A DNA stretch of 64,000 nt. Source: Bdellovibrionales bacterium. GTDB taxonomy: Bacteria; Bdellovibrionota; Bdellovibrionia; Bdellovibrionales; JAGQZY01. Position 1 is the stretch's first letter; every line of letters begins with the position of its first letter. Under the pieces are notes generated by a model. That model ran no database searches and was not told where the DNA came from. It saw only the letters and a program-made list of their open reading frames with translations. The translations under genes and the position numbers were made by a program. Where the stretch lies: assembly GCA_964230645.1 (NCBI GenBank), contig CAXRHT010000001.1, forward strand, positions 768,001 through 832,000, in the 5' to 3' direction. Of this stretch, positions 31,572 through 42,836 are shown piece after piece.

Positions 31572-32735
31572 TTATCGATTGGGGCAACGAACACGGTCGT
31601 CAGGAATACCGTTTTCATTGGCGTACTTGGTGTACTGTTGGCAGACTCTTCCGAAAAGAAACGAATCTTTAGCTCCAAATTCAAGAGAACTGGCAAGGCC
31701 CCTTTGCCTTCTCATATGTTTTTGCAGCATGTCTCTAAAATTAGGGTCATTTTTACTAAGAGCGGCCAATCTTTTTAAGCGATTTTTTTCGGCCAAGGCC
31801 GCACTCGCCCGCATTCTGGAAGCATGAGATCCACCGGATCCACTCATTCCAAAAAATCGCTCACCGAGTCCCTTGGCAATTCCAGCAAGCCTTCCTAAGA
31901 GTCCATCTCCACTAGTTGAAGAACCACCTGAAGCCGCAGCACCACCGCCACCAGAACCTCCTGAGGCAGAAAAACCGCCACTACCACCAGCACCACCACC
32001 AACAGAAGCCATTGCGCGAGAGGAATTTTTACTCCTTTCAGCATCTTCACCTGCAGAAGGACCGCCAGCACTATTTTGTCGGTTGAGCATAACGGCTGAC
32101 TGACCACTAGCCAGGGATTGAGATTTTACCGTATCGGGATTGCTACCGTTCTTAAAATTGGCGCCACCTGAAGCCCCACTGTCCTCACTCGCATAGAGCA
32201 AGCCACCTTTGACCATCGTTTGACCACCGGGGTTGCTACCGCCTCCAAGACCCGTAATCCCCGACCCAGCGTCATCCGCGTAGGGATCCTGAGCCTGCGC
32301 CTGTTGTCTTGCCGACTGATCAAAAGCAGTGTCTTCATCATCACTAGCTCCCGGAGGATTGCCATTTGTGCCTCCAGCGCCATTGCCAACTCCAGAAACA
32401 CTTGAATTGTTAAAATTATGGACTTGTTCGGCAGACGCACCTCTTCTGGATTCTGGATCTCTATCAGGACGCGCACCTGAAAGCTGAAAATTTCTTCTAT
32501 TTCCCTGAAATTCCAATGCTCCTGTTTCAGGTTCCACCTCAATTCCAGTTTCTGATCTTAAGTCCTCCCAGCCCGAGCTGTGAGGACCAGCCGCAGTCCG
32601 ACTTCCGATACATCCTTGGGGCTGGAAAACAGCGTCGCAGGCTAATACAGCCTCAACATCGACCATCTCTCCAGCCTTAGAATTATAGCCAAAGAGTGAT
32701 ATAGAGATGCAAATTAAAACTACAACAACTTTCAC
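31572..32735 (-). CDS. Secreted Gly/Ser-rich low-complexity hypothetical protein
   Basis: Signal peptide, Gly/Ser-rich centre, Cys pairs at both ends. Confidence 0.75.
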   Translation of the reverse strand: MKVVVVLICISISLFGYNSKAGEMVDVEAVLACDAVFQPQGCIGSRTAAGPHSSGWEDLRSETGIEVEPETGALEFQGNRRNFQLSGARPDRDPESRRGASAEQVHNFNNSSVSGVGNGAGGTNGNPPGASDDEDTAFDQSARQQAQAQDPYADDAGSGITGLGGGSNPGGQTMVKGGLLYASEDSGASGGANFKNGSNPDTVKSQSLASGQSAVMLNRQNSAGGPSAGEDAERSKNSSRAMASVGGGAGGSGGFSASGGSGGGGAAASGGSSTSGDGLLGRLAGIAKGLGERFFGMSGSGGSHASRMRASAALAEKNRLKRLAALSKNDPNFRDMLQKHMRRQRGLASSLEFGAKDSFLFGRVCQQYTKYANENGIPDDRVRCPNR

Positions 32736-32740
32736 TGATA

Positions 32741-33625
32741 CTATTCCGGTCTAGGTTCAGGTCTCACGGCACTCATTTCAACAAAACGGTTCAAATCCTG
32801 TAAAGACTGTAAGATTGATATTGCTTTTCTACGATTAATTTTATGCCTGTTCGCATTCAGATGGATTACTGAGGCCGCCCCTCCATCCCCCATCATATAG
32901 TTACTAAATTCGGTCAGTAGATTATCAATCCCGGCTTCGGTACAGGAAGCGAGGAGATGCTCCTTACCTTCTTGGTTATAGTCACCAATAATCTGTTTAA
33001 AAGTATCTTTACAATTGGGCGCTTGAGCTTGAGCTAGTGCCTGTGCACAAGATTGATTGGCTGTAACCATCTTCTTTAAATGATCATTTAGAGCGTTAGT
33101 CGTTCGAATGGCTGTCGATCTCCAATCAACCGAAGAAGATGTATCACTCGCTAGACCTCTTGCACTTTGTAATGCCTCCGTTAGCTCTGAATTTTCAGGA
33201 TCTGCGATAACTGAAGAGGCATTAGGATTTTGTTGGGATGGAGAAGAGGGGCCAAAAGTAGCTCCCTCTGGAATAGATCCTTCACACTGCCACCTGATAT
33301 TATTTAAACTACAATTATTATCGAAAAGATTGGCGAGATAACCTCTCATCTCCTCAACCAAACAAACATTTTGCCTCATCTGCTGCTTGGCCATGATTTC
33401 ATTGGCGACACCCTCTAAACGTTCCACGACGGCGGGATCATTAGTCATCATCATTTCGTTATTCAAACGACGCAAGTTTGCCTGTTCAGCACTTATCCTT
33501 AATCTTAACTCTTCTTTTAGCGGTTCTATATATTTAGATCGAACAATTTGCTCATCATACCCAAACTGAGCAAATGCTGGAATTGAAAACAGTAATGACA
33601 TCAATATGATAAAAATTTGTTTCAT
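32741..33625 (-). CDS. Secreted helical Cys-containing hypothetical protein
   Basis: Signal peptide ending PAFA; 5 nt from the downstream gene. Confidence 0.75.
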   Translation of the reverse strand: MKQIFIILMSLLFSIPAFAQFGYDEQIVRSKYIEPLKEELRLRISAEQANLRRLNNEMMMTNDPAVVERLEGVANEIMAKQQMRQNVCLVEEMRGYLANLFDNNCSLNNIRWQCEGSIPEGATFGPSSPSQQNPNASSVIADPENSELTEALQSARGLASDTSSSVDWRSTAIRTTNALNDHLKKMVTANQSCAQALAQAQAPNCKDTFKQIIGDYNQEGKEHLLASCTEAGIDNLLTEFSNYMMGDGGAASVIHLNANRHKINRRKAISILQSLQDLNRFVEMSAVRPEPRPE

Positions 33626-33906
33626 TTTCCCCTACCCATATCAGTCCATTATATAAGGTGAAGGCAAATTAGAACAGTTCTACTCTATTTTACGAGTCAA
33701 AATGAGACAGGATTGGAGCTTACCAAATCATTTGCTGTGACACTTTATGTTTCTAATCTGTAAATAATGTATACACTCTTGAAAAATTACCAGAGGGTAT
33801 GGCAATTATTAATAATCTCAATATGATAAACCCCTTACAATGATTGAAGAATTATCAATTGGTATGGAACTTGATATTAATAAGTACAAAAGGCTGGGAG
33901 GCTTAG

Positions 33907-34536
33907 ATGTTGAAAAAAATGTTAATCACCACAATAACAATAATGATGTTTCCTCTAATCGGTCACACAGAAAATGTGAGATCGGAAGATACTCTGGCTC
34001 GTTACACTTGTTTTCGAACAGACCAATCTGGAAACAACGCCTCTGGTAAAGTCGTTATCTTTCAACAACGTCACAATGACAATATTAACGGGGAAGATTT
34101 CAACTCTGGTCAACATTCCACAATTGCTGAGTTCTCTGTTCACGTTTTCAAAGGCGTTAACGAGGTAAGAGGTCTAAATTCATTCGAACAACTTCAGGAT
34201 TTAGATACTTTAGAACTCTCTGAAAACCTACTTTCTCAAGTGGGCACTACCTATCATGAAAAGCGTGACAATTACCTAGAGTATAATGATGGCGTTGCAC
34301 AAAGAAGAGGGGCCTTCTTAGGATTCAGCTGGAACGACCGAGATGGTAGCCTTGCACTGAATAGCGGCTTCACAACATCTGGAATTTTTAGTAACCGCAG
34401 AGAAAACTTTGAGGACACAGACCAAGGCTCTATGGTTTGTAATTTTCCCGATTTTATTTCTGAAAGGACAGAACTTGTCCTAAACGAGGAGACTCTTCAG
34501 AACGAAAACAACACAGTGAATTCAGTATTAAGATAG
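33907..34536 (+). CDS. Secreted hypothetical protein (paralog A)
   Basis: GGGAGG RBS, signal peptide, two Cys. Confidence 0.75.
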   Translation: MLKKMLITTITIMMFPLIGHTENVRSEDTLARYTCFRTDQSGNNASGKVVIFQQRHNDNINGEDFNSGQHSTIAEFSVHVFKGVNEVRGLNSFEQLQDLDTLELSENLLSQVGTTYHEKRDNYLEYNDGVAQRRGAFLGFSWNDRDGSLALNSGFTTSGIFSNRRENFEDTDQGSMVCNFPDFISERTELVLNEETLQNENNTVNSVLR

Positions 34537-34545
34537 TCTTTAGCC

Positions 34546-34576
34546 AAGCCACCTTCCTCCCAGGGTGGCTTTTGTT
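34546..34576 (+). terminator. Intrinsic terminator
   Basis: AAGCCACC-loop-GGTGGCTT followed by T-rich tract. Confidence 0.7.
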
Positions 34577-34716
34577 GTCTAGAAAATTTCCAACCCTGTA
34601 AATTTCACAGTTCAAGTTCTAAAAGCAACTCTTCTCTTATATAATATTTCTTTATTTCGCGGAACTATCAACCAGTTTTAGATCTTGAATTCATTGCTGC
34701 AAGCAAGGTATTGACT

Positions 34717-35265
34717 ATGAAATTTTTAACGACTTTTATACTTATTATTACTGGAGCGAGCTTTTCTCTGGCTACGGCCAGTGCAGACGAAAATTTAGCG
34801 CAACTTATATGCTTCACACATACCACAGGTGAAAATGCTTCATCGCAAGGTGATGTGTTTATCTTCACGCAAGAGCCTGGAAGTGGTGTCAGCGGCAAAG
34901 CAATTGCCGAAGTTGAGACGGATGAATACCAAAATACCATCGTCACTCCCGACCTTAAATTCCGTATGCAGCACTATCAAGAAGATGGGAATTCGGTTGA
35001 TGAATTAGTTAAACTCAACGCTCCTTTAGCTAGTCAGGGATCCGCTATATTGACCCTCTCTGAAGATCTCACACAAAATTCCATTAATATAGCCCCCACT
35101 CATTCTGTGCTTCTTCAAAGACAAATGGATGGAGTCGGTATCGGAAACTTCAATGACTCCCTTGGTGACGGGCTTCAATTTAAGACTGACGATATGAAAG
35201 GAAGTCTTACATACGAGGGTACGAGCCTACCCGTTTCCTGCTACAGTCATATAATTTCCCAGTAA
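34717..35265 (+). CDS. Secreted hypothetical protein (paralog B)
   Basis: Signal peptide ending ASA; N-terminus resembles 33907..34536. Confidence 0.75.
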   Translation: MKFLTTFILIITGASFSLATASADENLAQLICFTHTTGENASSQGDVFIFTQEPGSGVSGKAIAEVETDEYQNTIVTPDLKFRMQHYQEDGNSVDELVKLNAPLASQGSAILTLSEDLTQNSINIAPTHSVLLQRQMDGVGIGNFNDSLGDGLQFKTDDMKGSLTYEGTSLPVSCYSHIISQ

Positions 35266-35275
35266 CTTTTTTCAA

Positions 35276-36079
35276 TTACATCATGAGGCAAGCCATTTTC
35301 TCAAGACTTTGAGAAAGGGCTCGGCCCACGTCACTAAATGAGGATGCGGGCGTGAGATAGTTGGGATGAGTGACAACATGATCCCTGTAGAAGTCTCTTG
35401 TAATATAAAGATCTTCAGGCATATCGTTGGGGTCTCTTGGTTCAACCGTTTCACCGAGCATTTCCATGAGCTCATCCGCTCTACCTCTTCCTGTATCTTC
35501 ATATACGACAATGGGAAGACCATGAACTTGAATGCCTTCATAGCGAAAGAGATTTTTTAAGTTTAAAAATTCTTCGGCGGTATATTCATTGGGTGGACCG
35601 TCTCCTGAAATAAGGACCACTCTTCGAAAGGCTTGGTTGCCATCTCTTTTGAGGACTTCGAGTGACTTCTCAAGAGCTCCTCGCACATTGGTTACGTATC
35701 CGGTTCCATAAAGCTTAGCCAGTGGTGTTGGTGAGTTGATTTGGTTTCCAAAAAGAAGGGCTAAAGAAAAAAGGTCTTCCTCGGACCGAATACGCTTAGG
35801 TTCAAAAACAACGGACTGAGATTCACTCCAAAAAATCACACTTACTTCGGTACACCCACAACCTAAAAAAGGCCCCCAGAGATTCTCATTCATAAAGGCC
35901 TGCTGATAACCCTGCATCTGTAGGTTCATCTCCTGAGTATTAACCGAATGAGAAATATCTACAGCTATGACCACAGACTGATCAACTACGGACTGAGCGT
36001 CGCCACAGGCAGCCAAAGAGTATATTGAGATTAAGAAAATCTTTGAAAACACTAATATGATTCTGACAACTTGTAACAT
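35276..36079 (-). CDS. DUF1194 / von Willebrand factor A domain protein
   Basis: VIAVDISHSV...E..LQ..GY..A, WS, ISGDGPPN. Confidence 0.8.
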   Translation of the reverse strand: MLQVVRIILVFSKIFLISIYSLAACGDAQSVVDQSVVIAVDISHSVNTQEMNLQMQGYQQAFMNENLWGPFLGCGCTEVSVIFWSESQSVVFEPKRIRSEEDLFSLALLFGNQINSPTPLAKLYGTGYVTNVRGALEKSLEVLKRDGNQAFRRVVLISGDGPPNEYTAEEFLNLKNLFRYEGIQVHGLPIVVYEDTGRGRADELMEMLGETVEPRDPNDMPEDLYITRDFYRDHVVTHPNYLTPASSFSDVGRALSQSLEKMACLMM

Positions 36080-36238: not shown

Positions 36239-36577
36239 ATGTCCAAAAAATTATTTTTTCTTGTTTCTTTTATTTCTAGCTGTTTCGCTAGTGCAAGAGC
36301 TTCAGTTGACGTTACCGGTAGTGATTTCATGGAAAATGGAAATTCTAGACATGAATTCGTCGGGCAAGAAGAAATGCTTTTACATTTCTCAAATAGTGAT
36401 AAAATAGACCAATTCTTCAAGGATAACTCTTGTGCTTATGGAGTGGGAAATGAAATACAAAGTGAAGACGACGTTGTGGTTGATCTCACTAATTGTGACG
36501 TTATTATCGTTCCTCCTGATGTGGAAATTCTTGCCGCAGGAAATGTTTGGGAAGAAGGAGGTCGAAACTTCCTTTAA
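36239..36577 (+). CDS. Small secreted acidic protein (112 aa), candidate signal/RiPP precursor
   Basis: GAGGTG RBS; Sec-type signal ending ARA; acidic mature part with two Cys; first gene of the SBP-YcaO-HK operon. Confidence 0.65.
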   Translation: MSKKLFFLVSFISSCFASARASVDVTGSDFMENGNSRHEFVGQEEMLLHFSNSDKIDQFFKDNSCAYGVGNEIQSEDDVVVDLTNCDVIIVPPDVEILAAGNVWEEGGRNFL

Positions 36578-38018
36578 GGAAGTCGACCTGACCTTTTTTC
36601 TTCACCAGAAAAATCCATTTTCTACTAGTATTTATAAAAGTGATTATTTCAGAAACAACGCCCTGATGGTTAATCTGATCGGTTCACTTGTAAAAACTGA
36701 CAACGCAGGAAAATACAACCTGTATCTTGCAAAAAAATTGCAAACTACACTTGATAAGAAAACTTGGATCTTTACCCTCAGAGACAATCTATCTTGTGAA
36801 AATGGTGAAAAGATCACCGCAGCCTCCTACGCGAAAAACCTCACTCAGTCCTTGAAACGGTACAGCCGGATGGGGCAACTGCTTGAATTTAAGAAGCTCT
36901 CTGGAGCTAACGAGCTCGATAAATGGGATACCACACAAATTCCTGGAATAACCTACGAAGCAAACAACCTAATCTTGAAATTTGACCAAAGGCCAGAACA
37001 ATTGTTTGAGCGCTTGGCTGATAGATATTTCGGATACATTTGTTCAGGGAATTTTGAGGAGGATAATTACACTTGGAAAGACGAAAGTAAAATTATTTCA
37101 AGTGGTCCTTATAGAATCCATGAAGTAACGTCAGAATGGGACTTTACCTTAATTTATAGAAAAAAAGGGTCGGTTCCAAGGGAAACAGAGTTCAAAAAAG
37201 TAAGGTATAAAATTGTGAGTGATCCAAATGACATTCACAGCTCAACTTTTGTTGCTCAGCTCAACGAAATAATTCCCAAGAAGAAAAATGTTAATCTTGT
37301 CGGGGGAGTTCCAACATTTACAGTCAATCTGTCACTTCCGATCTGGGAAAAGTCTATCTTTCAAAATATTAAATCACGAAAATATTTTTTCTTTGAGCTC
37401 TACAATATAAAACAGAAAACACGATACAATGACACTTCAACTGTTTCTGCAAACAGTTTCTTCCCCCTTGACCAAAGAGACTATTTTTCCGAATACTACA
37501 AAAATAATAAAGTAAGACCTTGGATGTTTGAACAGAAAAGAACGGCTGTGGTTTCTTTGTCTACCGGTTTACCTCAAGATTATCAGAAATTGATTATCGA
37601 TAATTTAAAAACTATCGGACAAAAAATGAATTTCGAAATAGAACTTTACGATCCCCGAAAACACCAAGCTAAGACTCCAGAAAACATTAAGCCCTTTGAT
37701 ATCCGAATCACCTCAGTTGATATGGATGCCATTCCTTATTTTTCTCTTCTAGACATGATATTCTGTTCGGAATTGGGAGTGAGATATTCGGACAACGGAG
37801 GTAGAGTTTGCAAGTTCATAAACCAGCATATTAACACTCATAACGGACCTTTAGATACAGCTCAACGAGAGCAGTTACATAAACTCATTCTTGATAATGG
37901 ATTGGTCATGCCCTTGGCGCACAGGTCTCTAACATATATGTACTCAGACAACATCGATCTCAGTACTGTTTCAGCTTCTGGCCTTCACCCAGTGCCGAAT
38001 TTACTGAAGAAAAAATGA
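36450..38018 (+). CDS. Family-5 (oligopeptide-type) solute-binding protein with an N-terminal TM anchor
   Basis: LA......D.KTW.FTLR.....NGE.ITA and SSGPY motifs; GGAG RBS before ATG 36450. Confidence 0.8.
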   Translation: MKYKVKTTLWLISLIVTLLSFLLMWKFLPQEMFGKKEVETSFKEVDLTFFLHQKNPFSTSIYKSDYFRNNALMVNLIGSLVKTDNAGKYNLYLAKKLQTTLDKKTWIFTLRDNLSCENGEKITAASYAKNLTQSLKRYSRMGQLLEFKKLSGANELDKWDTTQIPGITYEANNLILKFDQRPEQLFERLADRYFGYICSGNFEEDNYTWKDESKIISSGPYRIHEVTSEWDFTLIYRKKGSVPRETEFKKVRYKIVSDPNDIHSSTFVAQLNEIIPKKKNVNLVGGVPTFTVNLSLPIWEKSIFQNIKSRKYFFFELYNIKQKTRYNDTSTVSANSFFPLDQRDYFSEYYKNNKVRPWMFEQKRTAVVSLSTGLPQDYQKLIIDNLKTIGQKMNFEIELYDPRKHQAKTPENIKPFDIRITSVDMDAIPYFSLLDMIFCSELGVRYSDNGGRVCKFINQHINTHNGPLDTAQREQLHKLILDNGLVMPLAHRSLTYMYSDNIDLSTVSASGLHPVPNLLKKK

Positions 38019-38860
38019 GAAAGTTAAGTATTTTCGAAAAGGCGCCTGAGAAACCTATTGTATATATGCAGAAACAGCAAGGCTTTGAAGATAATCAATC
38101 ATTTTATCATGTTACCCTACATTTTCCATCTACAAACATACTAGCCTCTGGAAGCGACCGAAGCAAGAGGATCGCTACCAACAAAGCTTGCTGTGAAGCT
38201 GTTGAAAGATTATTTTACCATAGGCACCAAGGCACAGATGTCATGAAATTCCGAGAACTTAATTCAACCACATGTATGGCTGCAGGTTTTGATTTAAGAA
38301 AAACTATTCAACGTTCGAACAACGAATGTGTAGAAAGGTATATTAAGTTACTTATTAATCAAAAAAAGTTCACACCAAAAAAGTCTCAAATTGCTAAATC
38401 AGATTATCGTTACCTTGCAGGATGTTTCGATCGTATAGAGAGGTTTACCGTGCAAGTTTCGTTTTTAGACTATAATGGTATTTCACAGGTTCGCTGGTTT
38501 ACGCTTTGTCTTTGTTGGCAAAAAGGTCGCTTTGTAACAGGTTCTTCTGTGAATAATTCTGCTGAAATGGCTACGGAACACTCTCTTGTCGAAGCTAAAA
38601 GAAACTTAACTATACTAAACAAACTGGATTCGCCACCCTATAATCAGTTTAAAAATTCGTTTTATTCAAAAGTAAAAAAAATGTCGAAATCAGGAGTAAA
38701 AGCCCTAAACTACTTGGAGAATATTAACATCGAAAAAGACCAAGTCATGCTTCCAAAAATCTACTGGCAGGAGTACTCTAATTTTCTCGGCACACACGTC
38801 TGTCGATCTTTTCTACAAGGGTACCTCTTAGACCTACCAAACCAGAAGGATCTTTTTTGA
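38015..38860 (+). CDS. Compact YcaO-like protein
   Basis: SG......A..KA..EAVER, S...MAAG...........E.VER, G.S.......A...L.EA; these resemble the YcaO ATP-binding motifs. Confidence 0.7.
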   Translation: MRKLSIFEKAPEKPIVYMQKQQGFEDNQSFYHVTLHFPSTNILASGSDRSKRIATNKACCEAVERLFYHRHQGTDVMKFRELNSTTCMAAGFDLRKTIQRSNNECVERYIKLLINQKKFTPKKSQIAKSDYRYLAGCFDRIERFTVQVSFLDYNGISQVRWFTLCLCWQKGRFVTGSSVNNSAEMATEHSLVEAKRNLTILNKLDSPPYNQFKNSFYSKVKKMSKSGVKALNYLENINIEKDQVMLPKIYWQEYSNFLGTHVCRSFLQGYLLDLPNQKDLF

Positions 38861-40020
38861 AGCCCAAAAAATCAGTTTTCCAGGAAAAACGCTTATACAC
38901 TCTTCTATTTTTAACCACACTGGCAGGATTATCCCTGGTTCAAATTATTTTCTATATTTTGATGCTTTCAAACAGTACAGTAATTACGAAGACTCTAAGA
39001 GAAAGTTTTGATATTGGTCTCTACGAGTCTGATTTTGACAATGCTTCTATTCTTATGCGAAATCTCGAAAAAGCAGACATTTTAGATTGTGTTTCACTCA
39101 AGATTAAGACAATCGATCAGCTTTTCGTTGTCTACTCCTCTGCTGTCCAGGAAACTTGTAATCCCTCAAGCTTTTTACTCAATGGTGTCAGGGTTGAAGG
39201 TTCTCTTGCTGGCAACACTGGAAACTCATGGATTTATTCCTTTGTAGTTCGAATGGACCAGAATCACGTTCTATTGTTATGGTTTTGCCGTCTTCTGTCT
39301 TGCATTGTTTCATTCGCTTTAACTTATTTTTTTGTTCAGAACAATCTGCATATTAAACAAAAGGAAGATGAAATTTCACTAAACATGAGAGCTATAGCTC
39401 ACGACCTAACATCGCCTATTGGACTCCTTAGAATGCTTTCTAGTCAGCAAAAGTCATTGAATAATGACAAAACCCTTGGCTACATGAAAAATGCTACCGA
39501 AAGGCTTTCAGATATCTCACAAACTATTCTAGATGGAACCCTTGATATTTACTCTTCTTCTAGAGAAACTTTTAATATCAAGAAAATAACTGAAAAGATC
39601 GTTGAAGAGAAGATTAACTTCTTTGGTGATTCGATCAGTGTTGATATCGAAACCTCCGTTGCAAACCACAACTTAAATGTTATCGGGAACAGTCAGAAAT
39701 TTGAAAGAATCTTATCAAATATGATTAACAATTCTTTTGAGGCTCTCTCAGAGAAAGTATCAGTGCTTCAGATGAAAATCGTTTTGAAGTCTGAAAATTC
39801 TAAAATAACTGTTCAAATATCTGATAATGGTTCGGGCATAAGTGATAGCCTTTTGAATCATTTAGGTGAAAAAGTCGTAAAATCAACAAAAAAAGGGGGG
39901 AGTGGCCTTGGGCTCTATCTCGCCAAAAAGGATATCGGCGAATGGGGAGGAGAGTTTAAAATTAAAACTACAAGTCCCACCGGCACAACCTTTGAAATCT
40001 CTCTTCCTAGAAGCGTTTAA
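38857..40020 (+). CDS. Membrane sensor histidine kinase
   Basis: Two TM helices; H-box IAHDLTSP, N-box NMINNS, G1 DNGSGI, G2 GSGLGL. Confidence 0.92.
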   Translation: MKPKKSVFQEKRLYTLLFLTTLAGLSLVQIIFYILMLSNSTVITKTLRESFDIGLYESDFDNASILMRNLEKADILDCVSLKIKTIDQLFVVYSSAVQETCNPSSFLLNGVRVEGSLAGNTGNSWIYSFVVRMDQNHVLLLWFCRLLSCIVSFALTYFFVQNNLHIKQKEDEISLNMRAIAHDLTSPIGLLRMLSSQQKSLNNDKTLGYMKNATERLSDISQTILDGTLDIYSSSRETFNIKKITEKIVEEKINFFGDSISVDIETSVANHNLNVIGNSQKFERILSNMINNSFEALSEKVSVLQMKIVLKSENSKITVQISDNGSGISDSLLNHLGEKVVKSTKKGGSGLGLYLAKKDIGEWGGEFKIKTTSPTGTTFEISLPRSV

Positions 40021-40043: not shown

Positions 40044-40958
40044 CTAGATTGACTTATTCTGTATCTGCTGCAAAAGCGCTCGATAGAAGACGTCGAACAC
40101 GCGGGCTTGATCCGGGGCGCAGTCTTTTTTGGAATAAAATTGCACGTTCATTGGGTATTGGAAATCCACTATAGGTACTGCCGACATTCTTCCCGTGCGC
40201 ACATGCTTTCTAATACTGTGTGCAGGTAGAAAGCCCCAGCCTAGACCTGATTCGATCACACGTTTTATGGTTCCAACATTTGTGGTTTCAAAAACGGGGG
40301 TCGGAGCTTTTTCCCCGTCCATATGTTTAGTCAGTGAGTTTTGAAAGCTAGGGAATTTTTCTGACAAACGCACCACAGGATTTTGGTTAATGTCTTTAAG
40401 CTGAATCTCCGTTGGAACACTAGCGTCTTTACTCGTTCCAACAAGCCACATCTCATCTTTCATCAAAAGTTTTTTGTCGGCATTCTCCAAGGGAACCTGG
40501 TACTCAGCCTGAGCATCGGGAATGATGATCACATCCAATTGATTGTTTTTAAATTGTTCAATCAATGTAACACCATCTTCGTAATTCAACTTAATATTAA
40601 GTTTGGAATTGTGCTTTAAAAATAATCCCACCACCGGACTTATAATATAAAGTCCTAATGAGTTTAGGGTTCCAATTCTTAGGGTCCCTTGAATGGCTTC
40701 ACCGATGGTTTGAATGGCCACCTGCGCTTGCTGATTAAGAGCAATAATCCTTTTCGCATAGTCGTACAGAATTTGGCCTTGAGCTGTCGCTTTGGCCTGC
40801 CTTGAACCTCTGACCAAGAGCTCAACGTTGAGTTCTTCTTCTAAATTTCTGATCTGTTGGCTGACGGCGGGCTGAGTTAAGAATAGTTTTTCAGCAGCGG
40901 CCGTCATGCTGCCCTCACTAAGAACGGTACAAAAAGTGGTCAATTGTTGAAAATTCAT
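40044..40958 (-). CDS. LysR family transcriptional regulator
   Basis: GSMTAAAEKLFLTQPAVSQQIRNLEEEL HTH and a LysR substrate domain. Confidence 0.95.
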   Translation of the reverse strand: MNFQQLTTFCTVLSEGSMTAAAEKLFLTQPAVSQQIRNLEEELNVELLVRGSRQAKATAQGQILYDYAKRIIALNQQAQVAIQTIGEAIQGTLRIGTLNSLGLYIISPVVGLFLKHNSKLNIKLNYEDGVTLIEQFKNNQLDVIIIPDAQAEYQVPLENADKKLLMKDEMWLVGTSKDASVPTEIQLKDINQNPVVRLSEKFPSFQNSLTKHMDGEKAPTPVFETTNVGTIKRVIESGLGWGFLPAHSIRKHVRTGRMSAVPIVDFQYPMNVQFYSKKDCAPDQARVFDVFYRALLQQIQNKSI

Positions 40959-41108
40959 GCTTCACTCTACCAATATTTTCAAAGACTTACAACATTATAA
41001 GTTTTCCTTATGTGAGCCCATAAAAAAGAACACTTGCCTCTTGTCCTAGACCATGGTCTTGTAAGCCTGTCTTTGGGGAGAAAGACAATTAATTCCGGGG
41101 GGGATATC

Positions 41109-42836
41109 TTGAAAGCGTTCTTACTTTCTGCTGTTTTATTCGTTGTTTACCTATCAACTACGGCTTGCTCGCCGTCTCAACAAACTTTCCAAGCACCACA
41201 CAACCAAGAAGAAGCCAGTAAAAATTTCATCGTCAAAGGGGATGCGGCTGATGTGGAAGCCGTGAAAGCAGCTAGTACCCATTTTCGAGTATTAAGTCAA
41301 AAACATGGCCTTTACGAAGTATCAGGACTTGATTACGAAACTATTAAAAACATCGCTCCTGCAGTGAACGCCACTCAAAATGAGTATTTTAATTCACTCA
41401 TTGGACCCAAAAAAGAAGAGGATGCTCTTAAAGTTCTCAAGGCGCAAGGGGCCCCTCTTCCACCGGGGCTTCAGCAAGTGCCACCAGTTCTTCGTGGCTG
41501 CATGATGCAAGATCCTCGTAAACCCACACCACAACTTGAGCTTCTTACTGAAGGCCTTTTTGCCAATGGATCACCCACCATGGATCTTGGCGGAAGCATT
41601 GCTCTTTCTGCCGCTGGAAGTCTTCCTTTTAATCGCGAAAGTGGAGAGCTTGAGCTTCGTTGGGACATTGTGACTCCAGCCAGTTCCCTTTTTAATGAGA
41701 CTTTTCAAGTGGGCGAAGAAGTGGAACTCACACCCGACTCTCTAGGTCTTTACGAAATCTATATGGTGGCTAAAGAGGGATCGGCTTGTGCTGCCACGGT
41801 GGTAAGATTTCTTGTCACTGACAATCCAGAAGTGGAGCTGGCTCGCGAAACCGATCCACGTCCCGAACTTGATCTTGAGCCTTTTATGCACCTAGAGCGT
41901 GTCAAAGCCAGCGAGTCATGGACGAAAGCAACAGGGATGGGAAAAGTCATCGCGGTTCTTGATACTGGTCTTAACTACAATCACCCGGCTATAAAATTCA
42001 ACTTAGCCATTAACTCTGATGAGCTCGAAGCTGACCGTGTCGGTGATGACGATGAAAACGGTTTTGATGATGATCTTGTGGGCTGGGATTTTGTGAATGG
42101 CGACAACAAACCTTTCGATGACGAAGGGCACGGCTCTCACGTGGCTGGCCTTGCTGCTTCTCATATTATTGGACTAGCAAAAGATGCCAAAATTCTTCCA
42201 ATTAAAGTTCTCAATGGTGCTGGTGGCGGTGATACGGGTAGTATCATTGCTGGAATCTACTACGCTGTTGATAATGGAGCTGATGTCATTAACGCTTCCC
42301 TTCAAAGACTCAACACCCAAATTCCTGAATTGAGAGAAGCGATCCGCTACGCTCACGATAACAATGTTGTTTTTGTAAGTTCTGCTGGAAACGACAATCT
42401 CGACCTTAGCCTTCCAGAAAATAGTATTTTTCCAGGCGAGCTCGATATTCCAAACGTAATCAACGTCGCAGCTGTTGGTGCCACAAGTGGCCTCGCTAGC
42501 TATTCAAACTACGGAGTTATGGAAACTGATGTTGCAGCCCCTGGTGGTGACCGCGGGCGTCCCATCTACTCTCTAGCTCCCTTTAATCCAAGAGGCCAAG
42601 AGTTCGTTGGAAGTGGTGGAACCTCTATGGCAGCCCCTATTGTAGCTGGAATTGTGGCTCAAGTGCTTGAAGTGAATCCAAATTTAACTCCTGTGGAAAT
42701 TAAAGTTCTTCTTATGGAAAGCGGTGAAGAAAAGCCCGCTCTTCAAGACTTCGTAGGCTCCGGAAAACTACTCAACGCTCTCGACGCGGTCGAAAGAGCG
42801 GAGTCGTTCAGCCTGCAACTTGTCAACAATATGTAA
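41109..42836 (+). CDS. S8 subtilisin-like serine protease, probable lipoprotein
   Basis: AVLDTG, GHGSHVAG, SAGN, GTSMAAP triad motifs; lipobox TTA-C after a TTG start with G-rich RBS. Confidence 0.93.
   Translation: MKAFLLSAVLFVVYLSTTACSPSQQTFQAPHNQEEASKNFIVKGDAADVEAVKAASTHFRVLSQKHGLYEVSGLDYETIKNIAPAVNATQNEYFNSLIGPKKEEDALKVLKAQGAPLPPGLQQVPPVLRGCMMQDPRKPTPQLELLTEGLFANGSPTMDLGGSIALSAAGSLPFNRESGELELRWDIVTPASSLFNETFQVGEEVELTPDSLGLYEIYMVAKEGSACAATVVRFLVTDNPEVELARETDPRPELDLEPFMHLERVKASESWTKATGMGKVIAVLDTGLNYNHPAIKFNLAINSDELEADRVGDDDENGFDDDLVGWDFVNGDNKPFDDEGHGSHVAGLAASHIIGLAKDAKILPIKVLNGAGGGDTGSIIAGIYYAVDNGADVINASLQRLNTQIPELREAIRYAHDNNVVFVSSAGNDNLDLSLPENSIFPGELDIPNVINVAAVGATSGLASYSNYGVMETDVAAPGGDRGRPIYSLAPFNPRGQEFVGSGGTSMAAPIVAGIVAQVLEVNPNLTPVEIKVLLMESGEEKPALQDFVGSGKLLNALDAVERAESFSLQLVNNM

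Follow-up and report, generated by a model that had tools for sequence, protein, structure and literature searches.

A conserved four-gene cassette of Bdellovibrionota couples a minimal YcaO enzyme to a secreted precursor, a binding protein, and a histidine kinase, and probably serves modified-peptide signalling

Introduction

Textbooks treat signalling by modified peptides as a hallmark of Gram-positive bacteria. In the agr, ComQXPA, and lantibiotic NisK/R systems, a precursor, a modifying enzyme, and a kinase (often with a regulator) are encoded in one operon and fall into co-varying specificity groups. Solute-binding proteins (SBPs) of family 5 bind peptides, and LuxP acts as a binding-protein receptor for the kinase LuxQ. 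YcaO enzymes use ATP, bound through their Glu/Arg motifs, to activate peptide backbone amides, yielding azolines, amidines, or thioamides; the Escherichia coli YcaO thioamidates uL16. Herein, we describe a four-gene cassette at positions 36239-40020 of a 64,000-nucleotide stretch of a Bdellovibrionales genome (contig CAXRHT010000001.1; the whole stretch is called the window below). It encodes a secreted precursor, a membrane-anchored SBP, a small YcaO, and a sensor histidine kinase, and comparative analysis suggests that it probably makes and senses its own modified-peptide signal between cells.

Compared with the Gram-positive systems, the cassette belongs to a diderm host, its long precursor has a predicted folded leader and would be exported through Sec, the modifying enzyme is a YcaO, and a family-5 SBP is the likely receptor instead of a kinase that binds the peptide directly. 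The kinases of agr and ComQXPA are polytopic, whereas that of the cassette has two transmembrane segments (TMs), and its three non-kinase proteins gave no Pfam or NCBIfam match to AgrB/AgrD or ComQ/ComX. The pairing of an SBP with a membrane kinase resembles LuxP-LuxQ and CBP-ChiS, and CBP is likewise an SBP_bac_5 protein. However, the ligands of those pairs are autoinducer-2 or chitin oligomers rather than an operon-encoded peptide, and the N-terminal TM anchor of the SBP in the cassette is encoded within the gene of its predicted ligand. Control of the kinase ChiS by CBP in Vibrio is described in the available part of PMC8050422.

Solved members of the YcaO superfamily (McbD, 6gos; the M. 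kandleri and M. jannaschii enzymes, 6ci7 and 6pe3; MusD, 7u58; LynD/TruD; E. coli YcaO, 4q84-86) have in common with the cassette enzyme the fold and three Glu/Arg motif regions. They are 377-784 aa long, in contrast to 281 aa here, and the cassette has no E1-like partner or recognition element (RRE) of RiPPs (ribosomally synthesized, post-translationally modified peptides), no dehydrogenase, no TfuA, and no C-terminal PxPxP; its substrate residue is predicted to be Asn, and its enzyme is genetically tied to a receptor and a kinase. In the spyrimidone (peptide-nucleobase hybrid) study of Pei et al. in Nat Chem Biol, the YcaO-made ring reportedly derives from Asn, and an RRE-YcaO-dehydrogenase complex plus an esterase are said to be required; we know of no Sec signal, SBP, or kinase in that pathway. 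On this account the likeness would lie in a conserved Asn, invariant in 37 of 37 precursors of the cassette's enzyme clade (clade A, below) and predicted to be modified, and the difference in the absence of RRE, dehydrogenase, and esterase from a run of only four genes. Four nitroreductase-family matches lie elsewhere in the window genome. The available parts of bioRxiv 2025.07.11.664356 and PMC13174530 describe, for spyrimidone-type pathways, a YcaO-made heterocycle and subsequent loss of a C-terminal follower, and together with that of PMC13063428 a nucleobase-like ring with follower removal. In the multi-enzyme std cluster of Streptomyces, a YcaO paired with TfuA thioamidates the Asn of SNKEWQE (PMC13174530, in the part available). 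The cassette would share action at Asn, and Asn-Lys is the most frequent pair at this site in clade A (15/37), but the std enzyme needs TfuA, which was not found in the window genome.

Bufferins, as far as the available text of PMC11626156 goes, are RiPPs with Sec-signal precursors that are modified and then exported by Sec. The cassette resembles them in having a Sec-signal precursor that folds as a small protein and a cytoplasmic-type modifying enzyme. Bufferin systems use MNIO/DUF2063 enzymes and conserved Cys, neither of which is present here, bind copper, and have no SBP or kinase. Each part of the cassette has a precedent, but the combination has none in the literature searched. Our search of work on YcaO and on peptide signalling in Bdellovibrionota found no description of it (subscription journals lay largely outside the coverage), in line with a preliminary description of this DNA, whose author knew of none; the cassette is apparently an undescribed four-gene unit.

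Results

The four-gene unit is real and conserved. On the forward strand, the precursor (112 aa, 36239..36577) is followed by an SBP without a transporter, the likely receptor (522 aa, 36450..38018), a minimal stand-alone YcaO with neither signal peptide nor TM (281 aa, 38015..38860), and a sensor histidine kinase (387 aa, 38857..40020). The precursor reading frame and the SBP gene overlap by 128 nt, ATGA at 38015 is common to SBP and YcaO, and TTGA at 38857 to YcaO and kinase; Shine-Dalgarno (SD)-like words precede 36239 (GAGGTG) and 36450 (GGAG). The preliminary description had reported four co-oriented genes without gaps and with these shared codons, and the reading frames agreed with it exactly. 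It had also noted the absence of a permease, ATPase, response regulator, dehydrogenase, TfuA, and peptidase, and none was detected by a Pfam scan of the four-gene run. The family assignments it had proposed were borne out by matches to SBP_bac_5 (PF00496, E = 2.7e-11) and YcaO (PF02624, E = 8e-7; 29.1 bits, just above the cut-off of 25.7), and HATPase_c was matched at E = 8e-19. The 112-aa frame had no match in the Pfam scan, and neither had 34 of 34 precursor relatives.

A congener (L016) carries these four genes in identical order, as does a metagenome contig (L122; L-numbers label fetched loci), and the whole stretch lay on one contig in two of four DNA runs, both of which may be the source of the DNA. 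An assembly artefact was rejected on the evidence of the congener, the metagenome contig, and the read-run contigs spanning the stretch. The GC content of the run is 36-38%, versus 43% for the genome. The YcaO is the sole YcaO match in the genome, and the SBP is one of nine SBP5 matches. TfuA (PF07812) was not found in this 99.6%-complete genome by a search that detected it in the control, M. acetivorans. Promoter and terminator scans of the locus were at about shuffle level, and no sigma-54 motif was found just upstream of the cassette.

The cassette recurs across the phylum; a lack of such co-occurrence would, by the preliminary description, have refuted its proposal. Loci were fetched from every place found by a 14-row YcaO profile in a search of 401 phylum genomes; the window YcaO alone matched 14 of these genomes and the profile 85. 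At least 85 of the 401 sampled genomes thus carry a short YcaO, and the distribution is patchy. In a representative library, the clade profile matched 207 clusters (50% identity) at E <= 1e-30. Adjacency was counted downstream of YcaO or divergently upstream, using SBP and kinase profiles built from the seed loci. Among 93 non-seed loci, 83 had an adjacent SBP, 76 a kinase, and 70 both; when only the 77 with room on both sides were counted, the numbers were 72 for SBP and 68 for kinase. The SBP lay directly upstream of YcaO in 22 of 25 loci (24 non-duplicates plus L122). A strict blind caller placed a Sec-type small reading frame before the SBP in 48/75 loci, versus 20/488 control frames. In the reverse test, YcaO was present in 27 of 40 SBP-first loci that were chosen for not being known previously, four of the 40 lying in genomes outside the profile search; these 27 enzymes were absent from the list of the 14-row profile, which under-counts clades other than A. 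An Opp-type permease was seen in only one fetched locus (L136).

We divided the enzymes into clades A-E with a quick IQ-TREE tree of YcaO, in which the SH-like approximate likelihood-ratio support was 88 for A, 100 for B, and 96 for C, and D was a weakly supported assemblage. The window belongs to clade A. A clade-A pattern scan of all species genomes gave 37 loci with titles nearly all from Bdellovibrionota; the exceptions by title were one Elusimicrobia, one Bacillota, one Pseudomonadota, and one uncultured. A clade-A YcaO is also encoded by a cultured carrier, L123, with the title Bdellovibrio sp. HCB337. With the queries used, no clade-A YcaO was found in viral contigs or plasmids. A 544-aa YcaO with a YcaO_C domain (L097) was of a different type and was rejected as a family member.

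The precursor has a Sec-type signal at residues 1-21 with an inferred cleavage site at A-R-A. Its AlphaFold2 (AF2) model had a predicted local distance difference test score (pLDDT) of 70 overall, 71-90 over residues 41-100, and below 50 in the tail, and suggests a signal helix, a small beta-alpha-beta-beta folded leader at about 44-100, and a disordered tail at 101-112. Fold searches reached Z <= 4.7 at best, for a common ferredoxin-like arrangement that we did not take as a family assignment, and the ESM Atlas gave no usable match for the mature protein. The frame is conserved among relatives, and it is under purifying selection outside the overlap: over residues 44-70, comparison with L122 gave a proportion of nonsynonymous differences (pN) of 0.31 and of synonymous differences (pS) of 0.89.

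Asn102 (codon 36542..36544) is the sole mature residue common to all 37 called clade-A precursors, and its flanks are hypervariable. It sits 16-17 residues past a conserved Asp column in 32/37. A second set of 24 loci was fetched after the Asn idea was on record. Eight were excluded (too short, rearranged, broken, or without a call), and Asn was present in 16/16 callable precursors, in 15 of them at +15 to +17 from the Asp column; among the excluded, L139 and the stop-broken L150 show the Asn by eye. The truncated L017 lies outside the 37. Neither the SBP frame that overlaps it nor an ATG start accounts for the invariant Asn, and we rejected both explanations. Both Asn codons are used (AAT 22, AAC 15) under 22 different SBP dipeptides, which shows selection on the precursor frame.

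The tail residue switches with the enzyme clade. Clade-A tails keep no Cys or His (Cys in 4/37), clade-B tails carry [ST][QN][DEA] in 16/17, and the short tails of clade C contain Asn in 12/12. Clade-D tails are rich in Cys, Ser, or Thr (Cys in 12/23; that of L093 has none), and tail Cys was present in 25/27 tallied SBP-first precursors. A C-terminal HP-type motif marks 20/28 clade-D enzymes and 0/60 in A-C (0/21 in clade A). Such switching of the tail residue is expected of a modification site, although the independent contrasts are few, and the comparative evidence favours the small protein as the YcaO substrate. That part of the earlier proposal of a YcaO-modified small protein is supported; ordinary azoline chemistry is unlikely in clade A, because the conserved site is Asn rather than Cys, Ser, or Thr. 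A clade-E precursor (L058:113-397, oriented to YcaO) carries GDTPWG three times, like a multi-core RiPP precursor.

Unrelated RiPP-type enzymes occupy the YcaO position in some loci, beside the same type of SBP and kinase. L191 (1742-7809) has, in order, a regulator, a Sec precursor with a Ser/Thr-rich tail, a LanM-type DUF4135 enzyme, an SBP, and a kinase, and L192 (1895-8913) and L194 (3428-8720) combine SBP and kinase with a DUF4135 enzyme and a major facilitator superfamily (MFS) protein. These stand-alone LanM N-terminal loci are candidates for a dehydro-amino-acid or phospho-peptide variant. In L026 (341-3363), a SPASM-maturase-like radical SAM enzyme lies with a Sec precursor and an SBP, and with the beginning of a kinase-like gene that is cut off. 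Different enzymes in one slot argue for peptide maturation as its job. At L026:14874-15976, a second Sec-type 80-aa frame is followed by a radical SAM enzyme whose best match, below the cut-off, is the YydG epimerase family. In L189 (4018-7192), L190, and L197 (2259-7383), SBP and kinase follow either a secreted, Cys-rich protein of 177 aa or an uncharacterised one of 674 aa, with no adjacent maturase.

These patterns bear on whether the YcaO instead acts on another protein, as E. coli YcaO does on uL16, or is a non-catalytic scaffold. The lack of an RRE or partner gene, the loss of several clade-typical residues from the window enzyme, and the M. kandleri YcaO as best Foldseek match would suit such a role, as would the action of stand-alone YcaOs on folded proteins described in the available part of PMC13063428. 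But each enzyme clade has its own tail residue, loci of the same layout carry other RiPP maturases in place of YcaO, and catalytic-type Glu/Arg residues are largely kept across the family. We regard this explanation as extremely unlikely.

The enzyme itself has the YcaO fold that the preliminary description had expected. Its AF2 model, from an alignment of 146 sequences, had a pLDDT of 93, and Foldseek ranked the M. kandleri YcaO, McbD, and the M. jannaschii YcaO at the top (E = 1.4e-7). Against 13 YcaO entries, Z ranged from 13 to 19, and VIA-align superposed 262/281 residues on McbD (6gos; Z 19.1, root-mean-square deviation 3.4). Three Glu/Arg motif regions of the family align to the ExxER motifs of solved YcaOs. 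The window enzyme retains E61/E64/R65, E104/E107/R108, H189/E193/R196, and R264; E61, E64, R65, E104, E107, R108, and E193 are kept in 93-100% of 94 family members and R196 in 84%. It ends in NQKDLF, without the C-terminal PxPxP-type motif of azoline-forming YcaOs named in the available part of bioRxiv 2025.07.11.664356, and TIGR03604 was not matched. It lacks the other marks of azoline-forming enzymes of thiazole/oxazole-modified microcins and linear azole-containing peptides, with no partner C protein or RRE and no Cys/Ser/Thr core, as well as that of the thioamitide type, with no tfuA beside ycaO.

McbD, which matches the structure best, belongs to microcin B17 synthesis, and bioactive RiPPs are the usual products of YcaO, LanM-type, and radical SAM enzymes. 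The cassette might make an antibacterial or anti-competitor RiPP, with the SBP as immunity protein and the kinase for autoinduction as in lantibiotic loci; MFS exporters in L113, L192, and L194 would fit. This reading is nevertheless very unlikely, given that the short variable tail offers just one modifiable site, that most loci have no dedicated exporter, and that the sensor domain co-evolves with the SBP, and even a weapon of this kind would still include peptide sensing.

The SBP has one N-terminal TM. Its membership of family 5 is given by PF00496 and by a family profile that matches OppA, MppA, and NikA along the full length, with OppA3, AapF, MppA, and NikA as the closest solved relatives. 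The adjacent genes of an Opp/Dpp/Nik importer are absent, with no permease or ATPase in the operon, although a permease encoded elsewhere could serve. The kinase has TMs at 13-43 and 136-161 around a periplasmic domain of ~90 aa, His182, intact N/G1/G2 boxes, and no receiver domain. Additional SBPs of the same family occur at L020:4762-6243, L021:9547-10878, L026:4416-5861, L035:2258-3766, L111:4617-5987, and L160-L162, often starting without the N-terminal anchor, beside cassettes or paired without enzyme or precursor; they are possible decoys, cytoplasmic binders, or eavesdropping receptors.

Tree distances across 71 loci gave rho values of 0.68 for YcaO-SBP, 0.51 for SBP-kinase sensor, and 0.33 for YcaO-sensor, but the catalytic part of the kinase showed no such correlation (0.06-0.14; maxima on shuffling, 0.11-0.20). 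For the SBP, the closest sequence came from the same YcaO clade in 70/71, for the sensor in 64/71, and for the catalytic part in 35/71. Seven genomes carry two cassettes that belong to different clades; there, both SBP and sensor were nearer to their own clade elsewhere in 14/14 comparisons, and the catalytic part in 11/14. The comparative evidence favours the SBP and the kinase sensor as a coupled pair. The kinase may be of the SBP-dependent type, its sensor but not its catalytic part co-varying with the SBP. An input module that stayed constant while its outputs were exchanged would produce such a pattern.

An SBP profile that matches NikA and MppA as well as OppA also suits metal or nutrient sensing, in which the precursor would be a bufferin-like metal carrier, or the SBP would sense an external nutrient (nickel complex, murein, or prey peptides), with the small protein serving only to tune it; thiazoline-type tails of clade D could chelate metals. 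We consider this highly unlikely, since clade-A tails keep no Cys or His, no importer is linked, and SBP divergence parallels the class of enzyme and precursor, a parallel that an unchanging external ligand would not call for.

In clade A, the gene of the predicted ligand is physically locked to that of the likely receptor by the overlap. The last 42 codons of the precursor are read in the +1 frame as the SBP N-terminus (36450..36577), and the membrane anchor of the SBP (about 36459-36539) is encoded by the same DNA as the last hairpin of the leader. The +1 offset is present in 37/37 clade-A loci. Third-position T rises from 476/1364 (35%) outside the anchor region to 468/703 (67%) under it, which indicates selection on the SBP frame; with the SD-like word before 36450, it led us to reject the anchor as a chance reading.

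With respect to output, the preliminary description had called the cassette self-contained. This does not always hold, as a sigma-54 response regulator family lies directly upstream at 15 loci of clades B and D. None lies beside clade-A loci, the window cassette included. A gene of regulator size (460-505 aa; identity by size alone) precedes 18/27 SBP-first YcaO loci, and the like-placed genes in L172 and L191 are sigma-54 activators.

The genes around the window cassette are a DUF1194/VWA gene (35276-36079, minus strand), which lies between the cassette and upstream secreted genes, and, at 40044-42836, a LysR gene converging on the kinase and then a subtilisin-like lipoprotein. All three were rejected as parts of the unit, as they do not recur among the neighbours of other cassettes. 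Further upstream (31572-35265), two secreted proteins (~290 and 360-390 aa) are divergent from two or three secreted genes of 180-210 aa; the larger protein is of low complexity with a C-terminal C-x-x-Y...CP motif. This block occurs three times in the window genome (here, C2:1860470-1866108, and C3:748111-751775), once before the cassette, once before a lone TM-anchored SBP5, and once with neither, and also at L016:10299-13775 and L095:2919-4001. In the congener, the cassette follows a block copy near exbB/exbD-like and rpoN-like genes, where the window genome has none. The block is a possible regulated output or an insertion hot spot.

Among other cassettes, L040, L082, L084, L085, L104, and L150 have a truncated or split YcaO, SBP, or precursor; the cassette appears to decay in some genomes, and assembly errors are possible. 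A cassette with the sigma-54 regulator (L025:217-5628) stands beside a VirB/Trb-like conjugation set, as judged by eye, and an integrase-like gene lies upstream of that in L022. Some cassettes may ride mobile elements.

Discussion

We propose that the cytoplasmic YcaO would grip the folded leader (44-100) and use ATP to activate the backbone amide next to Asn102. The most likely single product, which we favour tentatively, would be a dihydropyrimidone-like ring closed by the Asn side-chain nitrogen (-18 Da), because the residue fixed in sister clades is one that can form a ring, and because the enzyme most alike in structure is a heterocyclase. A thioamide at Asn (+16 Da) is possible and rather unlikely, its precedent needing TfuA; ATP-dependent cleavage is more doubtful still, and an amidine is a further alternative. 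YcaOs able to install nucleobase-like groups or to cleave are described in the available part of PMC13063428. Sec would then export the modified protein, and signal peptidase would cut after Ala21, possibly followed by trimming by general proteases. The SBP would bind the modified tail, hypervariable residues around the Asn producing strain-specific 'pherotypes', and the liganded SBP would switch the kinase through its periplasmic domain, as in CBP-ChiS and LuxP-LuxQ. The response regulator would be encoded elsewhere in the window genome, and in other clades would be the adjacent sigma-54 activator. The message might concern quorum, kin, or prey occupancy, as suggested in the preliminary description.

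The main rival accepts the same parts and removes the message: the modified protein would remain periplasmic in the producing cell, where it would be a standing ligand of the SBP or plug it, as an autocrine sensor, and its export, proteolysis, or displacement might report envelope state, prey entry, or a foreign protease. The predicted mature product is a 91-aa protein with a modelled folded domain, no dedicated peptidase or exporter is encoded, and the +1 overlap could couple the amounts of precursor and SBP. Bufferins, according to the available text of PMC11626156, remain periplasmic. The leader is also weakly like subtilisin prodomains (several rows at Z 3.6-4.2, not significant). However, a fixed Asn with hypervariable surroundings, the presence within one genome of several paralogous cassettes from different clades, and a patchy distribution (85/401 genomes) better fit identity signalling than housekeeping surveillance, and we judge the autocrine sensor to be unlikely.

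Several points weigh against signalling between cells by an Asn-modified product. To pass the outer membrane, a mature protein of 91 residues would have to be trimmed or to use a secretion route, and the cassette holds no peptidase, dehydrogenase, or RRE gene, with no regulator adjacent in the window. The window YcaO departs from its clade at near-invariant positions (G87C, W109Y, W114I, D116Q, G172R, W273D, and R280L), including several aromatic and Gly positions, and also at the C-terminus, so its activity may differ or be reduced. L024 of clade A has a candidate frame without the Asn; no start was called in it, and it was excluded from the 37. The 12/12 of clade C is weak evidence, because chance often puts an Asn among the last 16 residues (13/23 in clade D), and the enzyme-versus-tail pattern rests on about four clades, related loci not being independent. 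Nickel binders are matched by the SBP profile as well. Tree congruence can arise from linked inheritance alone, and linkage and unequal signal could contribute to the way in which SBP and sensor co-vary; the catalytic domain of the kinase is better conserved, and its signal may just be poorer.

A wider conjecture, somewhat less likely than not, is that Bdellovibrionota may possess a phylum-wide RiPP-pheromone language. One receptor design of anchored SBP5 and kinase would read Sec-exported peptides, and their chemical class would depend on which maturase occupies the slot (a YcaO of the Asn-ring or Cys-ring kind, a LanM-type dehydratase, or a radical SAM enzyme), strain identity would reside in the hypervariable residues, clade A would add the dual-coding lock between ligand and receptor, and the 281-aa YcaO would act as an Asn heterocyclase that needs no partner and recognises a folded leader.

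The invariant Asn narrows the question to one substrate, one residue, and three distinguishable mass shifts. The source genome is presumably that of a predator, judging by its relatives. If the proposal is true, it would add a receptor architecture in which a self-made RiPP is read by an SBP and a kinase, a very small, partner-free YcaO with likely Asn chemistry would become available as an enzyme tool, and Bdellovibrionota would gain a means to count or recognise their kin.

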